A stretch of DNA of 64,000 nucleotides from Escherichia coli (GTDB taxonomy: Bacteria > Pseudomonadota > Gammaproteobacteria > Enterobacterales > Enterobacteriaceae). The DNA is taken from assembly GCF_003334815.1 (NCBI RefSeq), contig NZ_QOWO01000004.1. One strand, written 5' to 3'. Positions 4,590-29,257 of this stretch are shown one piece after another (within the stretch, counting starts at the first letter, position 1; the number at the start of each line of letters is the position of its first letter). Made by a program: the position numbers and the translations under genes. The notes under the pieces are model-generated. The model was not told the DNA's origin. It made no database searches and saw only the letters and a program-made list of their open reading frames with translations.

Positions 4590-5600
4590 TCATTTCTTAC
4601 GCGCGTATTTCAGTGAATCCAGCGCTACGGCGAAGATAATAATCGCCCCTTTGATGATGTACTGCCAGTATGGGTTTACGCCGATATACGTCAGGCCATA
4701 GTTGATGACGGTAAAAATAATTACCCCGGTCACCACGCCAATCACCGTCCCCACACCGCCGCTGAACGATACACCGCCTACCACGCACGCCGCGATAGCA
4801 TCCAGCTCATACATAAAGCCGAGGTTGTTGGTGGCAGAGCCGATACGTCCGGCTTCTAACATCCCGCCAAAGGCATAGAACACGCCAGACAACGCGTAGA
4901 TCATCAGCAGGTTCAGGCCGACGTTGACACCAGATACTTTTGCCGCTTCCGGGTTACCGCCAATGGCAAAAATGTTCTTACCGAAGCGGGTTTTGTTCCA
5001 CAACACCCAGACGAACGCCACCGCAATCAACGCGTAGAAGGTGATGTAAGAGAGACGGAAACGCCCCAGCGCGACAAAGCCCTGAGCAAAGGTAGAGAAG
5101 CCACTGTCAAAACCAGAAATTGGCGACGCCCCGACAAAGTCGTAATAGAGCGAGTTGATGCCATAGACGATGATCATCGTGCCGAGCGTGGTAATGAACG
5201 GCGTCACGTTGAGATAAGCGATAATCAGACCGTTGATCAAACCGATCACCGCACCAATGGCACAGACAATCAGAATAACCAGCGCAATCGGCATCGTCGC
5301 CATTTCCGGGAACACTTTGTTGGCGTTATCCATGGACTGCAATAATGTCGCAGCCACCACTGCCGCCAGCCCTACCTGACGACCAGCAGAAAGATCGGTC
5401 CCCTGGGTGACAATTAACCCTGCCACACCGAGCGCGATAATAATACGCACCGATGACTGGGTGAGAATATTACTTAAGTTCAACAGACTTAAAAATGTTG
5501 GGTCCTGGAAAATAATAATCGCCAGCAAAACTAAAAGAACGACGTAAATACCGCCCTCTTTCAGGTAAGTAAGAAAACTTTTCTTATTTAACGCACTCAT
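4590..5600 (-). CDS. mglC: Galactose/methyl-galactoside ABC transporter permease
   Basis: 336-aa polytopic membrane ORF; matches MglC length; directly downstream of mglA on the same strand. Confidence 0.95.
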   Translation of the reverse strand: MSALNKKSFLTYLKEGGIYVVLLVLLAIIIFQDPTFLSLLNLSNILTQSSVRIIIALGVAGLIVTQGTDLSAGRQVGLAAVVAATLLQSMDNANKVFPEMATMPIALVILIVCAIGAVIGLINGLIIAYLNVTPFITTLGTMIIVYGINSLYYDFVGASPISGFDSGFSTFAQGFVALGRFRLSYITFYALIAVAFVWVLWNKTRFGKNIFAIGGNPEAAKVSGVNVGLNLLMIYALSGVFYAFGGMLEAGRIGSATNNLGFMYELDAIAACVVGGVSFSGGVGTVIGVVTGVIIFTVINYGLTYIGVNPYWQYIIKGAIIIFAVALDSLKYARKK

Positions 5601-5615
5601 GGGAAGCCCCTAATC

Positions 5616-7136
5616 TTAAAGGTGCAAAGACGCAAGACGCAGAATTTCGTTTTGCGTTGTTGTTTTTGTATCGACAATTCCGGAAACGAGACCATTGCTC
5701 ATGACCAGAATACGGTCTGTTATCCCTAACAACTCAGGCATTTCAGAGGAGATAATAATAATCCCCTTGCCTTTCTTCGCCAGTTCGGCAATTAACTGAT
5801 AAATTTCAAACTTCGCCCCGACATCAATACCGCGCGTCGGTTCATCGAGCATTAATATTTCTGGTTGCGTTAGTAGCCAGCGACCAATAATCACCTTTTG
5901 CTGATTACCACCGGAGAGCGAACCAATTTGCGTCCGATGACCCGGCGTTTTTACCCGCATCGAATCAATCACCCACTGGGTATCGCTTTTCATCCGCGAG
6001 TTATCCAGTAAACCAACTTTATTTTTGTAGTTGCGAATATTGGAAATTAACGAGTTAAAACCAATATCCAGATAGGCATAAATTCCCGTTGAGCGGCGCT
6101 CCTCAGTTACCAGTGCAAATCCATGGTTTATGGCTTCGTTGGCATTATGGTTATTGATCTGTTTGCCGTGCAACGTTATGGTGCCAGCCGATTTCTCGCG
6201 AATACCAAATAACGTCTCAACAATATCGGTACGTTTCGCCCCCACCAGACCGGCAATACCGAGGATCTCCCCTTTATGCAGATCAAACGAGACATCGCGA
6301 ATCGACGGCTGGCGCAGTGACGTCAGGTTACGTACCTCGAGGATGACTTCGCCCGGTTTGTTTTCTTTGTCAGGGAAACGCTGGTTAAGAGAACGCCCAA
6401 CCATCATGGCGATGATCTTGTCCATCGTCAGTCCTGCCAGCGGTTCGGTGGCGATCCACTGACCGTCGCGCAATACGGTAACTTCATCACATAACTGGAA
6501 GATTTCTTCCATTTTATGCGAGATATAAACAATACCGCAGCCGCGCTCTTTTAATTTACGAATAATAGTGAACAGATGATTGACCTCTTTTTCGGTTAAC
6601 GAAGAAGTCGGTTCATCCATAATCACAATTTTCGCGTTATAGGAAAACGCTTTGGCGATTTCGATCATCTGCATTTGCGAAACGGATAATGTGCCGACGC
6701 GCGCACGCGGATCGATATCAATATCCAGTTCGTCAAAAATCGCTTTGGTTTCGCGGTACATTTTGTCCTGATCGACAAACATGCCTTTGGTGGGATATCG
6801 CCCCAGCCACATGTTATCCATCACCGAACGTTGTAATACCAGGTTTAACTCCTGGTGTACCATCGAAATACCATTTTCCAGGGCTTCTTTTGCAGAATGG
6901 AAATCGATCTCTTTACCCTGGAATAAAATGGTGCCGGAGTCTTTTTGATAAATACCAAACAGGCATTTTAATAATGTCGATTTTCCTGCACCGTTTTCCC
7001 CCATTAATGCATGGATAGAATGTGGCCGGACTTTTAAATTAACGTTATCAAGTGCCTTAACACCAGGAAAGGACTTGTTGATACCGCTCATTTCCAACAA
7101 GTATTCCCCGGAGGACGGAGTCGTTGAGCTGACCAT
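5616..7136 (-). CDS. mglA: Galactose/methyl-galactoside ABC transporter ATP-binding protein (tandem ABC domains)
   Basis: 506-aa ORF with Walker [10 protein letters not shown] and signature LSGGNQQKV; two ABC domains. Confidence 0.95.
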
Positions 7137-7196: not shown

Positions 7197-8195
7197 TTAT
7201 TTCTTGCTGAATTCAGCCAGGTTGTCTTTATCTACGCCAACATAAGGTACGCGGACCACTTTGTTGTCGATTTTCCAGTTGGTGCCATCAGCCGCACCTT
7301 TACCATCGGCCAGGTTTTTCGCCAGATCAAAGGTCGCTTTCGCCTGGTTGTTAGCATCGTTCAGTACGGTGCCCGCCAGTGCACCGGATTTCACCAGCGC
7401 CAGCGCTTCTGGCAGCGCATCGACGCCAAACACCGGAATGCTGGACTTGTTGTGTGCTTTCAGCGCTTCAACCGCGCCCATTGCCATCGCATCGTTGTTG
7501 GCGATAACCACTTCGATTTTGTTGGCGTTCGGGCCAGACAGCCAGGCGTCCATCTTATCTTTCGCCTGAGCGGTGTCCCACATTGCGGTATCTAACTGTA
7601 ACTGTTCAGTTTTGATGCCTTTATCGTTCAATTCTTTAATCACGTAAGTGGTACGTGCTTCTGCATCCGGATGGCCCGGTTCACCTTTCAGCAGTACGAA
7701 CTGAATCTGACCGTCTTTGTTCAGATCCCAACCCTGATTCGCCGCCCAGTGTTTAGCAATCAAATCGCCTTGAATAATGCCGGACTCTTTGGAGTCAGTG
7801 CCAACGTAGTAGGCTTTGTCGTAGCTATCCAGCGCCTTACGAGACGGTTCTTTGTTGAAGAAAACCACCGGCACGTTTTGCCCACGCGCTTTCTCAATCA
7901 CCGTACCCGCAGCTGCCGGGTCAACCAGGTTGATTGCCAGTGCCTTCACCCCTTTCGCCAGCAATACGTCGATCTGATCGTTCTGCTTGGACTGGTCATT
8001 CTGAGAATCATTCATCAGCAGCTGAACATCTGGCGCGGCTTTCGCATCTTGCTCAATAGCCTTGCGCACTACAGACATAAAGTTATCGTCGTACTTATAG
8101 ATTGTTACACCAATGCGAGTATCAGCAGCGTGTGCAGCGGCACCGAATAACATGCTGGCCATCACAGCAGACAGGGTTAACACCTTCTTATTCAT
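7197..8195 (-). CDS. mglB: Periplasmic D-galactose/D-glucose-binding protein
   Basis: 332-aa ORF with signal peptide ending AHA-AD; matches MglB. Confidence 0.95.
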
Positions 8196-8446
8196 GGTAT
8201 CTCCGGTTTTTCTTATGCAGGGTAGTGCTTGAGATAAATGCTCGGCGGGGCAGTAGAGTTAATGAAGTGTTACTGAACGCCGAAGCTCACTTTTTAAAAT
8301 TCGTTCTTCCATGCCCGGTAACGCTCCAGAAAACGGCTTTAATTGTTGTTATGACGCTGTTACCTCGGCAAAAGTGATTATTCACTGTTACATACGGGTT
8401 ACAACGTTAAAACGGTGCAATCATAGCTATCACATTGTTAAGATAC

Positions 8447-8462
8447 TGTGAAATCACTCACA
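8447..8462 (-). promoter_or_regulatory. CRP binding site in mglB promoter
   Basis: tgtgaaatcactcaca fits TGTGA-N6-TCACA exactly; lies upstream of mglB. Confidence 0.6.
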
Positions 8463-8465
8463 GAT

Positions 8466-8479
8466 TGAAAGCGGTTACA
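8466..8479 (-). promoter_or_regulatory. GalR/GalS-type operator adjacent to the mgl CRP site
   Basis: tgaaagcggttaca fits TGnAAnCGnTTnCA; 4 bp from the CRP site; overlaps the galS stop codon. Confidence 0.5.
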
Positions 8480-9515
8480 TCGCCTGATTTGTTGAGTTAG
8501 TGATCGCCGCCGCATTCTGGCGTGTTGCGACAGAATGGCGACGCACTAACGTCGGCATAAAACAGTGGCTGGCACGAGGATCAATATTGCCTGCTGCCCC
8601 CTGCAAGGCCAGTTCGGTGGCTAATTTCGCCATTGAAGCAATGGGATAACGCACGGTCGTTAATTGCGGGTCGGTGTAACGGGCGATGGGAATATCATCG
8701 AAACCGATGATTGAGAGATGTAACGGAATCGCAATGCCATTATCTTTTAATGCTGTCAGTGCGCCAGCGGCCATATTGTCGTTATAAGCAAATACAGCGG
8801 TAAGTTGTAGATTGCGCCCCAGCAGTTCAACCATCGCCGCCTCACCGCCCGGCATGTCCGGCGTACCAGCGCCAATCCAGCTTTCCGGCGGAATAATATC
8901 CTGCTCTTTCAACGCACTCATCCAGCCTGCTTTACGCATGGCGTCATCTTCAATGCCGTGGCTGGAAGAAAGATAACCAATACGTTGATGACCGTTATTC
9001 AGCAACATGCGCGTCGCCATTCGGGCACCGCTGAGATTATCCAGGCAAACGCAACGATGGGCGTACCCCGGCACAACGCGGTTGATTAACACCATACCGG
9101 GAATGTTATCCATAAATTGCGCCAGTTCATCGTCACTCAATGCTTTTGAGTGAACAATCAACGCATTACAACGCTGGCGAATTAACACCTCAATGGCGTG
9201 ACGCTCTTTTTCCGCTTCATGATAGCTATTGCCGATTAGCACGTATTTCTGATGCTGCTGAGCGACCAGATCCACCGCTTTTACCAGCGCGCCGAAAAAC
9301 GCATCAGAAACGTCCATCACCACCACGCCAATGGTGTCGCTAACCTGAGTTGCCAGCGCCTGGGCATTGGCGTTTGGCCGATAATCCAGCTCACTCACGG
9401 CTTTCATTACTGCTTCACGCGTGTCGGCACTGACCAGCGTGCTGTTATTGAGCACCCGGGAAACCGTTGCCACAGAGACGCCAGCCTGACGCGCTACATC
9501 ACGAATGGTGATCAT
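8475..9515 (-). CDS. galS: LacI-family repressor GalS (mgl/gal isorepressor)
   Basis: ORF 8475..9521; Met at 9515 gives 346 aa; N-terminal [26 protein letters not shown]. Confidence 0.92.
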
Positions 9516-9591
9516 ATTCACTACCTGTTATGAGATTGCAGTAAATGACTGCTTGCTGGCGGCTATTTTGTCAGCACTGAATACAGGACTT

Positions 9592-9607
9592 CGTGAATCG
9601 AGTCACA
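9592..9607 (-). promoter_or_regulatory. CRP-like site in galS promoter
   Basis: cgtgaatcgagtcaca approximates TGTGA-N6-TCACA, about 80 bp upstream of galS start. Confidence 0.4.
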
Positions 9608-9611
9608 GCAA

Positions 9612-9625
9612 TGGAAACGGTTACA
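9612..9625 (-). promoter_or_regulatory. GalR/GalS-type operator in galS promoter
   Basis: tggaaacggttaca fits TGnAAnCGnTTnCA; same operator-next-to-CRP arrangement as the mgl promoter. Confidence 0.45.
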
Positions 9626-9656
9626 GCCGTTTTGTTAACGAATGTGATCCAGATCG

Positions 9657-10814
9657 TTATCTTGATGTTTTAGATATTGCCGGTCCGGCAGCACGCAAAG
9701 TTAACTGACGCCAGAGCCATTCCACCGGCCCCTGGCGGAAGTAACGCAGCCAGATAACAGAGAAGAGGATATTCGCCAGCCATACCGGAATAACAAACGC
9801 CAGCAGCTCCAGGCGGTCAAAATGCATAAACAAACCGAGGTGGTAAAAAAGCGTGGTACAAATCAGCGTTTGCAATAGATAGTTGGTCAGCGCCATCCGT
9901 CCGACGCAGGCGATCGCAAGCACCAGCTTAAAGCGGCTCAATTGCGGCCAGAAGCCATAAAACAGCGACGCATAGCCAATCGCCTGAAACGGCGCACTCA
10001 GTTCCCGCGGCATTTGAAGTAAGAAGGCACACCAGCGATACGCCCAGTCCAGCTGCCATTGCAGGGCGATGGCAGGAAGGTTAATGGTCACCCCAATCGC
10101 CACCAGCACAAAACCAGTACGACGATAGTGACGTAAGCTGAACTGCCCTTTCAGCCAGCCGCTGCGCATCAGCGCCGCACCAATGAGCATCATCCCTGCC
10201 AGTTGCCAGCCATACTGTGCGCCCAGTGCCAGTAAACTGTTGCCAACACCATCGGCACGATAACTGATCGCTTCAACGCCGCCGTGAAGCTTCCAGTATT
10301 TTTCATACAAAATAGCCGATGCATCCGGCGTCCAGGCGCGGCTGGTCTGGCTGTCGGAAATCAGCCCCAATAACAGCAAAACGCCAAGCCCCACCAGATA
10401 AAGCATGACGCCTGTATTAAACAGGCTTTTTACCGATGGCGCATCGCGCACCAGCCGCCAGCAGATTAAGCCCACCAGCCCGTAAGCCAGCAAAATATCG
10501 CCGTCCCAGAACAATAAACCGTGAATAAAGCCCAACAAGACTAACAGCGTTAACCGCGACTGGATCCAGCGTCTGCCACGGGGCAGCAACATTTGCAGGC
10601 CCGCACCAAACAGTAGCGCAAAAAGCGTGAGGAATTTCACCTGGCCGATGAGATCAAGAAATGCCCAAGTCCATGCATCCCGCGGCGTAATAGCACCGTA
10701 CCAGGCGGGATTGAGATAAGCCGCCTTTGGTAGCCCAAAGGCGCTGATGTTTAATAGCAGGATCCCCAGAATGGCGACGCCGCGAACAAAATCGAGCGTG
10801 ACGTTGCGCTCCAT
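9657..10814 (-). CDS. yeiB: DUF418-family inner-membrane protein
   Basis: 385-aa polytopic membrane ORF, 17 bp downstream of folE on the same strand. Confidence 0.9.
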   Translation of the reverse strand: MERNVTLDFVRGVAILGILLLNISAFGLPKAAYLNPAWYGAITPRDAWTWAFLDLIGQVKFLTLFALLFGAGLQMLLPRGRRWIQSRLTLLVLLGFIHGLLFWDGDILLAYGLVGLICWRLVRDAPSVKSLFNTGVMLYLVGLGVLLLLGLISDSQTSRAWTPDASAILYEKYWKLHGGVEAISYRADGVGNSLLALGAQYGWQLAGMMLIGAALMRSGWLKGQFSLRHYRRTGFVLVAIGVTINLPAIALQWQLDWAYRWCAFLLQMPRELSAPFQAIGYASLFYGFWPQLSRFKLVLAIACVGRMALTNYLLQTLICTTLFYHLGLFMHFDRLELLAFVIPVWLANILFSVIWLRYFRQGPVEWLWRQLTLRAAGPAISKTSR

Positions 10815-25275: not shown

Positions 25276-26214
25276 TTAACCCGCGAGACGCTGATATTCT
25301 TTGGCAATTTCGCTCGCCAGAATGGCGTTGTTGAACACCAGCTGGATGTTGGATTTCAGGCTGTCACCGCCGGTCAGTTCAGCAACGCGCGCCAGCAGGA
25401 ATGGCGTACTTTCTTTACCAATGACTCCCTGAGCTTCAGCTTCAGCTACCGCCTGATCGATCGCCGCATTGATAGTGTGTTCCGGCATAGCAAACTGTTC
25501 CGGGATCGGGTTCGCTACCACGAGGCCACCGTTCAGACCGCTTTGCCATTTCACCGCCATTGCACGGGCAATTTCGCTGGCGCTGTCGAGACGAATGCTG
25601 ACGTCAAACGGGCTGGTGCGGCAGAAAAACGCAGGCAGCGCTTTAGTCTGATAGCCAATTAACGGCACACCGAAGGTTTCTAAATACTCAGTGGTTAATC
25701 CTAAATCGAGAATAGATTTCGCCCCGGCACAAACAACGGTGACATTAGTATTTGCCAGTTCTTGCAAATCGGCAGAAATATCGAAGGTATGTTCCGCCCC
25801 GCGATGCACACCACCAATTCCCCCGGTGGCAAATACTTTAATTCCGGCAAGCGCCGCAATAATCATCGTTGAAGCCACAGTGGTTGCGCCATTTTTTCCG
25901 GCGGCAACAACAAAAGGTAAATCGCGACGACTAACTTTGGTCACGTTATGCCCTTCACGACCCAGTAATTCAATTTCTTCTTTGCTTAACCCCACTTTCA
26001 TCACGCCGCCAATAATGGCGATCGTGGCAGGTACAGCGCCCTGTTTACGAATAGTTTCTTCAACTTCAATTGCGGTCTGGGCATTTTGTGGGAACGGCAT
26101 CCCGTGAGAAATAATGGTCGATTCCAGCGCCACAACCGGTTTTTTGTTTTTTAAAGCGTCCTGCACTTCCGGGGAAATTTGTAATAATTCAGGGGAAATT
26201 TTTAATTCAGACAT
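25276..26214 (-). CDS. psuG: Pseudouridine-5'-phosphate glycosidase
   Basis: 312-aa ORF recognised as PsuG; overlaps psuK stop by 13 bp. Confidence 0.92.
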   Translation of the reverse strand: MSELKISPELLQISPEVQDALKNKKPVVALESTIISHGMPFPQNAQTAIEVEETIRKQGAVPATIAIIGGVMKVGLSKEEIELLGREGHNVTKVSRRDLPFVVAAGKNGATTVASTMIIAALAGIKVFATGGIGGVHRGAEHTFDISADLQELANTNVTVVCAGAKSILDLGLTTEYLETFGVPLIGYQTKALPAFFCRTSPFDVSIRLDSASEIARAMAVKWQSGLNGGLVVANPIPEQFAMPEHTINAAIDQAVAEAEAQGVIGKESTPFLLARVAELTGGDSLKSNIQLVFNNAILASEIAKEYQRLAG

Positions 26215-27143
26215 TCTGCGTTCTCCACTAACGATATAACGTTGGCAATCGATAAATCGGGGTTATTGGTGTATTCACAGGAGAGCGCCATTGACGAACA
26301 TCCCTGTGCGAAACGAACAGATTCGGCAAACGGCATTCCGTCTACCCAACACGAAGCAAGTCCCGCCATCATGGCATCGCCCGCTCCGGTAACATTAATA
26401 ACATTGGTTTTGATCGGCGCAGACCAGCCACTTTCACCGCTGATATCGCTGTAATAAACGCCGTCGCCGCCCATGCTCAATACCAGTCGGTTCAGGCCAT
26501 GTTGATGGAACCAGGCAGCAACTTTTGCCACATCTTCACGCCCTGACAGCGCAATCCCACTCAGGGTTTCCGCTTCAAGGCGGTTTGGCTTGAGAGTGTG
26601 GATCTGATTTAGACGGTCGCGCACTTTGACACATTTCCATGCCGAAACCGGATCGACAAATACGGGTACGTTGGCGGCATTATCCAGAATCCATGCCAGT
26701 GCCTCTTCACTGATATTACAGTCCGCGACAATGACCTTTGCCCTCTGAATAAATTCACCGTGCTGTGCGAGATATTCAGCTGTAATAGCGTTGCTAATAT
26801 TCATGTCATTTATAGCAACCAGCATTTCACCGGTATTATCGAGTAATGATAAATAACTCGACGTATTTTCTCCCGGCACAATCAGGCATTTATCGACATA
26901 AACGCCAGATTGATTGGTTTGCGTTAGCAGCGATTGACCATAAAAATCACTGCCTACGGCGCTCAGTAGCCAGGCTTTGTTACCCAGCAACGCCAGGTTT
27001 TGTGCAATATTGCGCCCTACTCCACCAGGCGTAAATTTTATTTTACCTGGATTTGAATCCGCATAATTTAATGATTCATGTGAATATCCGGCGACATCAA
27101 TATTCGCCGAACCTATAATTACGACATAATCCTTTTCGCGCAT
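26202..27143 (-). CDS. psuK: Pseudouridine kinase (pfkB family)
   Basis: 313-aa ORF with ribokinase-family motifs (GGVGRN, GAGDA). Confidence 0.9.
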   Translation of the reverse strand: MREKDYVVIIGSANIDVAGYSHESLNYADSNPGKIKFTPGGVGRNIAQNLALLGNKAWLLSAVGSDFYGQSLLTQTNQSGVYVDKCLIVPGENTSSYLSLLDNTGEMLVAINDMNISNAITAEYLAQHGEFIQRAKVIVADCNISEEALAWILDNAANVPVFVDPVSAWKCVKVRDRLNQIHTLKPNRLEAETLSGIALSGREDVAKVAAWFHQHGLNRLVLSMGGDGVYYSDISGESGWSAPIKTNVINVTGAGDAMMAGLASCWVDGMPFAESVRFAQGCSSMALSCEYTNNPDLSIANVISLVENAECLN

Positions 27144-27382
27144 AGCACGTCCTCTGGTAAAAAATTACCAACCCTGTCAATCCACAAGAATATAGATACT
27201 GCAAAGACGGTTTAAACATGTGTTCATATTTAAACATGTGCTCATAGTATGCATGTTTTACGTAAAGTAAATTACCGCCAGAGAGGCAAAATGGGCAGAT
27301 TTGAGCAGGCTCACAAAATGCGATTAAATGCCTGAATTACAAAAGCGAGGAATTTGTGACGGGATGCACAGAACAGAACAAT

Positions 27383-27565: not shown

Positions 27566-29257
27566 TTACGCTGCTTTCGCTACTGCGTCCACTTCCGGAC
27601 GTTTCAGGAAGGCATAGGCCAAACCCGCCACCAGCGTACCGGCAATAATTGCTACCAGGTAACCCAATACCGGCGTAATAGCGCCAGGGATCAGCAGAAC
27701 AAACAGACCACCGTGCGGTGCCATCAGTTTCGCACCAATCGCCATTGAGATTGCGCCAGTCAGCGCCCCACCCACGATACAGCACGGCAGCACACGCATC
27801 GGATCACGAGCAGCAAACGGAATTGCACCTTCCGAAATGAAGCACAGTCCCAATACCAGAGCGGCTTTGCCACCTTCCTGCTGCGCTTTGTCGAATTTGC
27901 GACGCGCCACCATTGTTGCCAGACCCATTGCCAGCGGTGGCACCATACCTGCCGCCATAATCGCCGCCATCGGGCCATAGGTTTGAGTACTCAGCAGACC
28001 CACACCGAATGCGTACGCTGCTTTGTTTACCGGACCGCCCATGTCAGTACACATCATGCCACCGAGGATCGCCCCCAGCAGAACCGCATTCGCAGTCCCC
28101 ATGGTCTGCAGCCAGTGAGTCAGCCCTTCGAGAATGCCAGCAACTGGTTTACCGATCAGGTAGATCATCGCCAGACCGACCACCAGACTGGAAATTAGCG
28201 GAATGATCAGGATCGGTTTCAGCGCCTCCATACTCTGTGGCAGTTTCAATTGCGTACTGATTAACTTCGCAATGTAACCAGCCAGGAAGCCCGCAATAAT
28301 ACCACCAATGAAGCCAGAACCGGTGCTGACCGCCAGCATACCGCCAATCAGACCCGGAGTGAGGCCCGGACGATCGGCAATGGAAAAGGCAATATAACCT
28401 GCCAGTACCGGCACCATCAGCGCAAAGGCTGAACCACCACCAATCTGCATCAGCGCCGCAGCCAACGTACCCGGCTCTTTAAACGCTTCGATACCAAAAG
28501 CAAAAGAAAGCGCGATACACAGACCACCTGCAACGACCATCGGCAGCATGTAAGAAACGCCCGTCAGCAAGTGACGGTATGCGCCTGCACTCTCTTTCTT
28601 ACTTTCAGTGGTCGCCGTTTGAGCTTTGCCCGCCGGTTCATACGGCGTTGCTTCAGCAACCGCTTTATCCAGTTCCTGCGCGGTTTTCTTCAGCGCCAGA
28701 CCGGTAGAGGTACGATACATCGGTTTACCAGCAAATTTCGCCAGATCCACTTCGATATCTGCCGCCACAATCACCAGATCCGCTGCTGCGACTTCTTCGG
28801 GAGTGATTGCATTACCCGCGCCAACAGAACCACGGGTTTCAACTTTCACCCACCAGCCACGTTTTTTCGCTTCGGTTTCAATGGCTTCAGCCGCCATAAA
28901 GGTGTGTGCTACGCCAGTCGGGCAAGCAGTCACCGCAACTACGCGTTTCGGACCGCTGGCGGCAACTGGTGCTGTCGCAGCGACCGGCGCAGTGTAAGGT
29001 TTCGCATGGCCTTTGGCTTCACTCAGGAACAGCTCAGGGTGCGCAACTGCCCGGGAAATATCGCCCAGCCAGACATTTTTACCGTTCAGCGCGCTGTCGT
29101 TCGGGATGGAATCACCGAGAACAATCGCCATTTCAGCGTCGTTCGGATTGTCGATGATTTCCAGTTTTGCTTTTCGCGCCGCCGCGCCCAGCAGGGTCTT
29201 CGCCATATAGGCGCGTGCCTGACCGAGATTAGCGTCAATAATCAGCAGCGTTTTCAT
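27566..29257 (-). CDS. fruA: PTS fructose-specific EIIB'BC component
   Basis: 563-aa ORF recognised as FruA; last gene of fruBKA. Confidence 0.95.
   Translation of the reverse strand: MKTLLIIDANLGQARAYMAKTLLGAAARKAKLEIIDNPNDAEMAIVLGDSIPNDSALNGKNVWLGDISRAVAHPELFLSEAKGHAKPYTAPVAATAPVAASGPKRVVAVTACPTGVAHTFMAAEAIETEAKKRGWWVKVETRGSVGAGNAITPEEVAAADLVIVAADIEVDLAKFAGKPMYRTSTGLALKKTAQELDKAVAEATPYEPAGKAQTATTESKKESAGAYRHLLTGVSYMLPMVVAGGLCIALSFAFGIEAFKEPGTLAAALMQIGGGSAFALMVPVLAGYIAFSIADRPGLTPGLIGGMLAVSTGSGFIGGIIAGFLAGYIAKLISTQLKLPQSMEALKPILIIPLISSLVVGLAMIYLIGKPVAGILEGLTHWLQTMGTANAVLLGAILGGMMCTDMGGPVNKAAYAFGVGLLSTQTYGPMAAIMAAGMVPPLAMGLATMVARRKFDKAQQEGGKAALVLGLCFISEGAIPFAARDPMRVLPCCIVGGALTGAISMAIGAKLMAPHGGLFVLLIPGAITPVLGYLVAIIAGTLVAGLAYAFLKRPEVDAVAKAA

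Follow-up and report, generated by a model that had tools for sequence, protein, structure and literature searches.

The control regions of mglBAC and galS, each carrying a CRP site beside an operator for GalS and GalR, are almost certainly the known regulatory regions whose arrangement has been described since the early 1990s. The window, that is, the whole stretch of 64 kb that was analysed, is the mglBAC-galS-yeiB region of E. coli K-12 with 100% identity to MG1655. Since mglB, galS and yeiB are all encoded on the - strand, each operator lies upstream of its own CRP site (Table 1). A sequence-only reading of this DNA had placed a CRP site and an operator at both promoters, and the coordinates that it gave for these four sites are exact. 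The arrangement that it described is correct but already known: the published mgl and galS control regions (Hogg et al. 1991; Weickert and Adhya 1993; EcoCyc/RegulonDB mglBp, galSp) are the same object, and later literature sets their sites at coordinates identical to those given here. To this picture are added the 18 and 19 bp spacings across genera, the lineage limits of a stop codon overlap and of an internal operator, and a distal CRP site at galS. The positions, conservation and spacing of the sites come from the present analysis, and GalR occupancy, operator mutations and CRP dependence from the literature.

Table 1. Coordinates in the window of the genes and regulatory elements of the mglB and galS promoters.
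Feature	Position	Strand	Remarks
mglB CDS	7197..8195	-	First gene of mglBAC
mglB -10 hexamer (predicted)	8420..8425	-	TATGAT; 21 bp downstream of the CRP core; conserved
mglBAC promoter CRP site	8447..8462	-	Perfect TGTGA-N6-TCACA; + strand TGTGAAATCACTCACA; gene strand TGTGAGTGATTTCACA
mgl operator (GalS/GalR)	8465..8480	-	16-mer ATGTAACCGCTTTCAA on gene strand; exact pattern match
galS stop codon	8475..8477	-	TAA; inside mgl operator half-site TGTAA
galS CDS	8475..9515	-	346 aa; ATG at 9515
galS internal operator (OI)	9458..9473	-	Gene strand GTGGCAACGGTTTCCC; ~ +92.5; in helix-turn-helix codons (SVATVSR)
galS core promoter	9557..9573	-	Extended -10 TGaCAAAAT at 9573-9565; TGnCAnAAT conserved
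galS proximal CRP site	9592..9607	-	Gene strand TGTGACTCGATTCACG; + strand CGTGAATCGAGTCACA; one core mismatch
galS external operator	9611..9626	-	Gene strand CTGTAACCGTTTCCAT; exact pattern match; centre -61.5
galS distal CRP site	9640..9661	-	+ strand GAATGTGATCCAGATCGTTATC; centre 9650.5, ~ -93.5

The two promoters may be considered in terms of a shared module with small differences in geometry. The mgl operator reads TGAAAGCGGTTACA on the + strand (8466-8479), which fits the pattern TGnAAnCGnTTnCA, and the corresponding galS operator reads TGGAAACGGTTACA (9612-9625). When compared to the hyphenated 16-bp GalR/GalS dyad GTGNAANCGNTTNCAC, each 16-mer fits 10 of the 12 specified positions. 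Positions 3, 5, 9 and 15 of the operator are genetically critical (Qian 2016, PMC5110547, citing Adhya and Miller 1979), and G3, A5, G9 and A15 are intact in both operators in either orientation. The expected CRP core of TGTGA-N6-TCACA holds at all 10 positions for mgl and at 9 of 10 for the galS proximal site. The operator and the CRP core are separated by 3 bp at mgl and 4 bp at galS, or 18 bp versus 19 bp from centre to centre. The 22-bp mgl CRP site (8444-8465) shares a single base pair, 8465, with its 16-bp operator, and the 22-bp galS site (9589-9610) abuts its operator with zero overlap. The claim of a common architecture was thus right as to the CRP/operator pair in both promoters; the spacing differs, however, and the galS promoter is more elaborate.

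Weight-matrix scans for GalR and CRP recovered these sites from the whole window. A GalR matrix was built from 16 ChIP-chip sites, which span 14.6 to 22.5 bits, with the mglB and galS sites excluded from training. On both strands, the galS operator ranked first (22.2 bits) and the mgl operator second (17.2 bits). With a core-only CRP matrix, from whose training both sites were left out, the mgl site ranked first and the galS proximal site third. The full CRP matrix, which derives from high-affinity in vitro sites and includes the flanks, gave 6.7 and 8.1 bits for the mgl and galS proximal sites, respectively, and rank 44 of ~64,000 for mgl, with the low scores attributable to unfavourable flank and spacer bases. 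The best match to this full-length matrix, at 23653-23672, is one of its own training sites and its rank is meaningless. Only these two sites in the 64 kb match the operator pattern exactly, against 0.13 matches expected. CRP cores with at most one mismatch number 6 in the window against 1.94 expected. An operator with a CRP core 17-20 bp away was found twice in the window and in 0 of 400 Markov-simulated windows.

All 81 enterobacterial genomes compared, from many genera, retain both CRP-operator pairs, with the spacing fixed at 18 bp for mgl and 19 bp for galS. The G mismatch of the galS proximal core (TGTGA-N6-TCACG) is itself present in all 81, and variation in the operators is limited to the N positions of the consensus and the outer flanks. 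Within E. coli, 5426 complete genomes were compared over a 44-bp mgl stretch and a 79-bp galS stretch. Identity of at least 99% was found in 5399 of them for mgl, where at 44 bp it amounts to a perfect match, and in 5059 for galS. A reading of the motifs as chance matches without regulatory function is exceedingly improbable. While operator patterns with one mismatch are not above chance in the window (3 found, 3.21 expected), the number of exact matches, the absence of the composite from the simulations and the conservation at fixed spacing, together with the ChIP-chip and genetic data described below, already refute it.

The mgl operator was also read as overlapping the galS stop codon, and TAA is indeed found inside it at 8477-8475 on the - strand. 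This overlap occurs only in Escherichia and one other enterobacterial isolate, in which GalS is 346 aa in length. In other genera GalS has 340 or 341 aa and the operator 16-mer starts 11-15 bp past the first base of the stop codon. Thus, the overlap is due to an extension of GalS by 5–6 codons.

Published data place factors and mutations at the same positions. GalR ChIP-chip identified a peak at 2240625 with the inferred site TTGAAAGCGGTTACA for mgl and a peak at 2241771 with the inferred site ATGGAAACGGTTACA for galS (Qian et al. 2016, PMC5110547), which map to 8465-8479 and 9611-9625 of the window, respectively. Mutations at 2,238,647 and 2,238,648 in the mgl operator arise recurrently in glucose-limited chemostats and lead to semi-constitutive mglBAC expression; they correspond to the CG at the centre of the operator, 8472 and 8473. 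A third chemostat mutation, 2,238,630, was placed in the CRP activator site by its authors and corresponds to 8455, within the mgl CRP core. For the galS operator, unlike the mgl operator, no derepressing mutations were found in the literature. A confirmed CRP site is given for mglBp in the literature, and the known CRP site is visible at galSp in a 2026 Reg-Seq preprint. The activity of the galS promoter climbs with cAMP (Kaplan et al. 2008), and cAMP-CRP controls every gal-regulon promoter except PgalR. Inhibition of CRP-mediated activation by GalR binding has been shown for PgalP.

The galS transcription start is at -42 relative to the ATG (Kinnersley 2009, Table 3), an A at 9557 of the window, which sets the proximal CRP site at -42.5 and the external operator at -61.5. 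Documented GalR peaks, mutations and the galS start all coincide with the sites proposed from sequence rather than falling elsewhere in the intergenic regions. Together with the conservation, they agree with the control of both units by GalS/GalR and CRP that the sequence-only reading had put forward.

For mglB, no documented start was found in the accessible literature. From the conserved TATGAT we infer a start 7 nt past the hexamer, at the G of 8413, which would give a leader of 218 nt. The sole statement found on the extent of the mglB 5' UTR is 'about 250 bp'. Because the start is deduced from the -10 hexamer, the placement of the CRP centre at ~ -41.5 and of the operator centre at ~ -59.5 is deduced with it. 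A search of 8100-9750 against Rfam returned zero matches, and the folding of a 224-nt mglB leader was no better than that of shuffled sequences (z = -1.7). A conserved block in the leader (~8370-8392) bears a weak likeness to an operator in some genera, at 9 of 12 positions; in K-12, no 15-mer of 8366-8391 reaches 3 bits and the block was set aside.

With these positions, mglBAC and galS would both be class II type CRP-dependent promoters. A cAMP-CRP dimer bound to the 16-bp core, 21 bp upstream of the -10 hexamer, would replace a usable -35 element and recruit RNA polymerase; the interval is 21 bp at galS as it is at mgl, and a consensus scan identified no sigma-70 promoter with a -35 element at either position. 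A dimer of a LacI-family repressor would occupy the 16-bp dyad operator at ~ -60, abutting the upstream edge of the CRP site. At mgl, GalS is the main repressor, with GalR binding as well. In the absence of galactose, the bound repressor would cancel activation by CRP, most likely by occupying the DNA upstream of CRP where the C-terminal domain of the polymerase alpha subunit must dock, and at mgl, where one base pair is shared, it may crowd CRP as well. D-galactose frees the repressor from the operator, giving an AND logic in which transcription requires both high cAMP and galactose. Since the same module is present at galS, GalS would be autoregulated as well as CRP-activated.

Two forms of this mechanism were considered. 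In the form that is modestly favoured, repressor and CRP are bound together and the repressor beside CRP blocks the alpha C-terminal domain or traps polymerase in an inactive state, as for GalR at the external operator of galE P1. The galS sites abut without overlap and their 19-bp spacing is that of galE P1, and the strict spacing in all 81 genomes suggests a stereospecific arrangement over simple occlusion; however, the mgl spacing is 1 bp shorter and base 8465 is common to both sites. That shared base pair is one of the points behind a second form, possible but somewhat doubtful, in which repressor and CRP compete for overlapping DNA and the activator is displaced. The mglB sites for repressor and activator given in EcoCyc have been noted to overlap in part, and mutual interference was offered as one way to explain the monotonic response of mglB to cAMP (both Kaplan et al. 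2008). Against displacement of the activator, the mgl 22-mer and 16-mer overlap by a single base at the edge of each and the galS sites do not overlap at all, and at galE P1, which has the same geometry, repressor and CRP are generally described as binding together.

The closest known system is galETKM P1, where the operator, the CRP site and the -10 follow in the same order and the repressors and the dyad are shared. Weickert and Adhya are said to have likened the operator and CRP arrangement of galS to those of the gal and mgl promoters in the abstract of their 1993 report. An E. coli galE locus served as a control. Its P1 reading reproduces the published operator positions of -60.5 and +53.5, and the spacing between the external operator and the CRP site is 19 bp, the galS value. 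The galETKM P1 CRP site is at -41.5, and its left half is poor (TTTAT), in contrast to the near-perfect cores of mgl and galS. There are further differences. The galE gene has two overlapping promoters and its full repression requires an operator-operator loop with HU; mgl has one strong operator that is 1 bp nearer to CRP. An internal operator is present in both galE and Escherichia galS, within the coding sequence in the case of galS, but it lies ~153-154 bp from the external operator at galS and 114 bp from it at galE, and the one in galS is restricted to Escherichia.

This internal operator raises the question of whether galS is repressed by a DNA loop between the external and internal sites, as in the gal repressosome, instead of by a single dimer. 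With 15.9 bits on the GalR matrix, the internal site ranks third in the window, and it has been listed among the operators within the ChIP-chip peak of galS (Qian 2016, PMC5110547). The resolution of ChIP-chip is, however, too coarse to separate two sites ~153-154 bp apart. Conservation argues against the loop as well. The site reaches at least 12 bits in only 6 of the 81 genomes, all six of them Escherichia, and is lacking in the other 75; the orthologous 15-mer has a median of 0.2 bits, and one E. coli of the set is without the critical G at position 3. The peptide SVATVSR is constant throughout the set, so the resemblance to an operator rests on synonymous positions; Citrobacter, for instance, has the codons GTC GCG ACC in place of GTG GCA ACG. 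For its part, the mgl promoter has no second operator in 7197-8464 that exceeds 8 bits on the GalR matrix. The galS gene has reportedly been credited with external and internal operators since the work of Weickert and Adhya in 1993, which speaks for the loop. The combination that distinguishes the gal repressosome, a second downstream operator that is conserved and in phase, is found neither at mgl nor at galS, and repression of galS by looping is considered improbable. A site named O(mglB) (Qian 2016, PMC5110547), at 7379-7394, scored just 4.8 bits on the GalR matrix and was not retained.

The galS promoter provides some contrast to mgl in having a second, distal CRP site that the sequence-only reading had not included. 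Its centre is 51 bp upstream of the proximal centre. It matches 15 of the 22 consensus positions, which ranks second in the window, and scores 13.5 bits on the CRP matrix (rank 4). The site is present at exactly 51 bp in all 81 genomes, varying almost only in its outer flank and at the two bases in the middle of the spacer, and it overlaps the yeiB stop codon at 9657-9659. In the accessible part of a 2026 Footprint-seq preprint, it is tabulated as a novel CRP site with an in vitro Kd of 7.5 nM; that part of the table of novel sites lists the distal galS site alone and is hence silent on the proximal site. The conserved sequence on the upstream side of the galS operator was also considered as a Fur-box-like sequence, a yeiB terminator hairpin or Dam GATC pairs; these readings were dropped, as it is listed as an in vitro CRP site.

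The Reg-Seq preprint reported an activator footprint at galSp at ~ -95 with no factor assigned. This activator is probably CRP at the distal site. It is likely, on this basis, that galS is a conserved tandem-CRP promoter with its operator (-61.5) between two CRP dimers (-93.5 and -42.5), the distal one bound at 9640-9661. In such a promoter, the yeiB stop codon contained in the weak half of the distal site would keep that half from changing. The arrangement resembles that of class III tandem CRP promoters, with sites near -41.5 and -90 to -93 compared to -42.5 and -93.5 at galS; it differs in having a repressor operator between the CRP sites and a weak distal half, TCGTT, that carries the yeiB stop. 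The Reg-Seq and Footprint-seq preprints are separate, and neither names the galS result of the other. At the equivalent position of mgl (-93.5, centre 8506.5), the candidate TGCGGCGGCGATCACT scored 4.6 bits, which places it at rank 86, and agreed with the consensus at 11 of 22 positions. Its left half varies like ordinary codon third positions, and it was rejected as unsupported.

As a check on annotation, the sequence-only reading placed two textbook modules at the correct base pairs. What the comparison across genera contributes is a division of the features by age. The ancestral features are the CRP-operator pair of each promoter, with its spacing of 18 bp (mgl) or 19 bp (galS), and the distal CRP site of galS. 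Those that arose recently and by accident in Escherichia are the overlap of the mgl operator with the stop codon of galS and the operator inside galS. This division may be of use in modelling the gal network or in transferring it to other enterobacteria. The distal site also offers CRP as a candidate identity for the activator footprint seen at galSp in a large-scale study. If galS is indeed a tandem-CRP promoter, the isorepressor gene would be more sensitive to cAMP than its target, and a single repressor dimer could interrupt two activators.

Between 8150 and 9700 the window is 100% identical to MG1655 (E. coli K-12), and a search of 5426 complete E. coli genomes found this stretch in every one. 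Adding 2,232,153 to a window coordinate gives the U00096.3 coordinate; those of U00096.2 are 1,978 lower. The sequence-only reading placed a CRP site and an adjoining operator at the promoters of the mglBAC galactose transporter operon and of the galactose isorepressor gene galS, and the positions of all four motifs proved exact on a sequence check. The operator lies upstream of the CRP site in both promoters because the genes are on the minus strand. In the 64 kb, the only two exact matches to the operator pattern are at these sites (0.13 expected), and CRP cores with no more than one mismatch number six, against 1.94 expected. Two composites of an operator and a CRP core 17–20 bp away are present in the window, against none in 400 simulated windows.

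Genes and regulatory features of the mgl-galS region (window coordinates)
Feature	Position	Strand	Sequence	Basis or remark
mglC	4590-5600	-		RefSeq annotation and ORF list agree
mglA	5616-7136	-		RefSeq annotation and ORF list agree
mglB	7197-8195	-		RefSeq annotation and ORF list agree
mgl -10 hexamer	8425-8420	-	TATGAT	sequence and conservation
mgl CRP core	8447-8462		TGTGAAATCACTCACA	sequence read
mgl operator	8466-8479 (full 16-mer 8465-8480)		TGAAAGCGGTTACA	sequence read
galS	8475-9515	-		RefSeq annotation and ORF list agree
galS extended -10	9573-9565	-	TGaCAAAAT	sequence and conservation
galS CRP core (proximal)	9592-9607		CGTGAATCGAGTCACA	sequence read; one mismatch
galS operator	9612-9625 (full 16-mer 9611-9626)		TGGAAACGGTTACA	sequence read
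Distal galS CRP-type site	9640-9661		GAATGTGATCCAGATCGTTATC	centre 51 bp upstream of proximal site, ~-93.5
yeiB	9657-10814	-		RefSeq annotation and ORF list agree

GalR ChIP-chip peaks at 2240625 (mglB) and 2241771 (galS) have the inferred sites TTGAAAGCGGTTACA and ATGGAAACGGTTACA (Qian et al. 2016, PMC5110547), which map to 8465-8479 and 9611-9625, respectively. A recurrent chemostat mutation of the mgl operator at 2,238,647 and its neighbour at 2,238,648 (Kinnersley et al. 2009, 2021) map to 8472 and 8473, which form the CG at the centre of the mgl dyad. Base 8472 is position 9 of the gene-strand mgl 16-mer, one of the genetically critical operator positions (Qian 2016, citing Adhya and Miller 1979). 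A further chemostat mutation, placed by its authors in the CRP activator site (2,238,630), maps to 8455, within 8447-8462. In a Reg-Seq preprint (10.1101/2025.05.13.653802), the mglBp CRP site is taken as confirmed and the known CRP site is visible at galSp. The documented positions thus coincide with those read from the sequence and do not fall elsewhere.

Matrix scans were run as the sequence-only reading had suggested. A GalR matrix was derived from 16 ChIP-chip-derived sites (Qian et al. 2016), excluding those of mglB and galS, and its top three matches on both strands of the window were the galS operator (22.2 bits), the mgl operator (17.2 bits) and a site within galS at 9459-9473 (15.9 bits). 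A CRP matrix was derived from 34 in vitro sites of a Footprint-seq preprint, with no proximal mgl or galS site among them. In the window, its ten core positions alone rank the mgl site first and the galS site third. When flanks and spacer are added, the ranks fall to 44 (mgl) and 28 (galS) of ~64,000 since unfavourable bases adjoin both cores; the best full-length match is a training member and its rank is therefore meaningless.

A GalS search produced 80 loci from species-representative genomes (81–99% protein identity) in genera that include Escherichia, Citrobacter, Salmonella, Enterobacter, Klebsiella, Raoultella, Kosakonia, Kluyvera, Trabulsiella, Franconibacter and Atlantibacter. Together with K-12, all 81 genomes have xTGTAAxCGxTTxCAx and TGTGA-N6-TCACG exactly 19 bp apart, centre to centre, at galS, and ATGTAACCGxTTxCAA and a perfect TGTGA-N6-TCACA exactly 18 bp apart at mgl. 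Column conservation is lower between and around the sites and still high at the -10 regions. Among the 5426 complete E. coli genomes, 5399 carry a 44-bp mgl stretch at 99% identity or more (at this length, without mismatch) and 5059 carry a 79-bp galS stretch at 99% or more. The claim of a same architecture holds for a CRP site with the operator upstream in both promoters, but not for the spacing, 18 vs 19 bp. As a control, the external operator and CRP site of the galE promoter in another E. coli genome are 19 bp apart, and counting from the P1 start gives the published operator positions of -60.5 and +53.5. Thus, the spacing at galS is exactly that of galE P1, and the spacing at mgl is tighter by 1 bp. 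The mismatch in the proximal galS CRP site (TCACG, not TCACA) is invariant in 81/81 genomes and is followed by nAG, a pattern suggestive of selection, either for a sub-optimal site or for an overlapping signal.

In both promoters, the end of the CRP core is 21 bp upstream of the conserved -10 hexamer. A consensus -35/-10 promoter was not found at the mgl or galS position, which fits activator dependence. The galS transcription start is at -42 from the ATG (Kinnersley 2009, Table 3), or window 9557, and the proximal CRP site and operator are therefore at -42.5 and -61.5. For mglB, the start is predicted to be the G at 8413, 7 nt past TATGAT, which would put the CRP site at -41.5, the operator at -59.5 and the leader at 218 nt; the published leader is given just as "about 250 bp" (Csiszovszki 2011). 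Several blocks of the predicted leader (8196-8413) are highly conserved across genera, such as ~8366-8392 and 8314-8338; neither an Rfam match nor a significant fold (z = -1.7) was obtained for the leader. The sole sigma-70 consensus match of the leader region, TTGTAA-16-AATAAT (8404-8377), lies within it.

CRP activates mgl and galS, and all gal-regulon promoters are CRP-controlled with the exception of PgalR. The activity of the galS promoter increases with cAMP, and mgl is repressed by GalS, a repression relieved by operator mutations (Kinnersley). Inhibition of CRP-mediated activation by GalR binding, shown for PgalP, amounts to AND logic. The operator would span ~-52 to -69 and adjoin the upstream side of a class II CRP dimer, and a repressor dimer on it would cover the usual docking place of the polymerase alpha C-terminal domain. 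Anti-activation of this kind, with CRP and repressor bound together, is somewhat more likely than a simple exclusion of CRP by the repressor, given that the spacing does not vary by a single base pair across the 81 genomes and that the galS spacing equals that of galE P1. Since the CRP site (22 bp) and the operator (16 bp) of mgl have base 8465 in common, the repressor may additionally interfere with CRP there, a possibility considered earlier by Kaplan 2008. The proposed fit to known GalS/GalR and CRP control is supported by the ChIP-chip sites, mutations, conservation and matrices.

The overlap of the mgl operator with the galS stop codon (8477-8475) was also borne out. Among the 81 genomes, it is limited to those with a 346-aa GalS, namely Escherichia coli-type genomes and one other enterobacterial isolate. 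Every other genus, like two further Escherichia species, has a GalS of 340 or 341 aa, and there the operator 16-mer starts 11–15 bp past the first base of the stop codon. The 346-aa frame is 5–6 codons longer, and its stop is the TAA within the conserved TGTAA half-site, so the overlap is a by-product rather than a design feature.

The internal galS operator (9458-9473), which the sequence-only reading missed, is the third-best GalR match, appears in the Qian 2016 list and lies within the helix-turn-helix codons. The orthologous 15-mer scores a median of 0.2 bits and reaches at least 12 bits in just 6/81 genomes. While the SVATVSR peptide is unchanged, synonymous codons of other genera destroy the site, so the resemblance rests on synonymous positions. 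The internal operator is essentially Escherichia-only.

Other CRP-like sites occur in the window. A perfect core, TGTGAATCTTTTCACA (1771-1786), tied for the best core-only score, is 94–109 bp upstream of the ATG at 1880 of a 412-aa ORF before preA, presumably preT. The cores TTTGAGCAGGCTCACA and TGTGACGGGATGCACA (27298-27317 and 27355-27370) are in a 420-bp gap between minus-strand ORFs 26202-27143 and 27566-29257, upstream of the first. Strong CRP-matrix matches are found at 22989-23008, at the 5' end of ORF 22092-23033 facing a divergent intergenic region, and at 23653-23672 inside ORF 23163-23861, the latter being a Footprint-seq (yeiL) site and hence in the training set. The fourth-best GalR match (13.3 bits), TTGTTATCGTTTGCA at 14791-14806, falls between cirA and ORF 14910-16379, ~175 bp upstream of the former; it matches the site that Qian et al. 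2016 took from chromosome conformation capture and list as 'O (F13)' (2246944-2246959).

The distal galS CRP-type site, also missed by the sequence-only reading, matches 15/22 consensus positions, second best in the window, and scores 13.5 bits (rank 4) with the CRP matrix. It is exactly 51 bp from the proximal site in 81/81 genomes, its weak half overlaps the yeiB stop TAA in all of them, and nearly all variation is in two central spacer bases and the outer flank. Stationary phase, acetate and galactose are expected to be high-cAMP conditions. It is in these that the "unidentified activator" at ~-95 of galSp is strongest in the Reg-Seq preprint (10.1101/2025.05.13.653802), a footprint with which the distal site coincides. 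The identical sequence, centred at 2241803, is a novel CRP site with a Kd of 7.5 nM in the 2026 Footprint-seq preprint (PMC12871828, Table 1); a connection between this site and the footprint was not found stated in the text of either 2026 preprint. The galS promoter thus probably has tandem CRP sites that flank the operator. The architecture is confirmed and its interpretation supported at a locus already known, the closest description being of this very locus; what is added is comparative detail and the probable identity of one unassigned galSp footprint.
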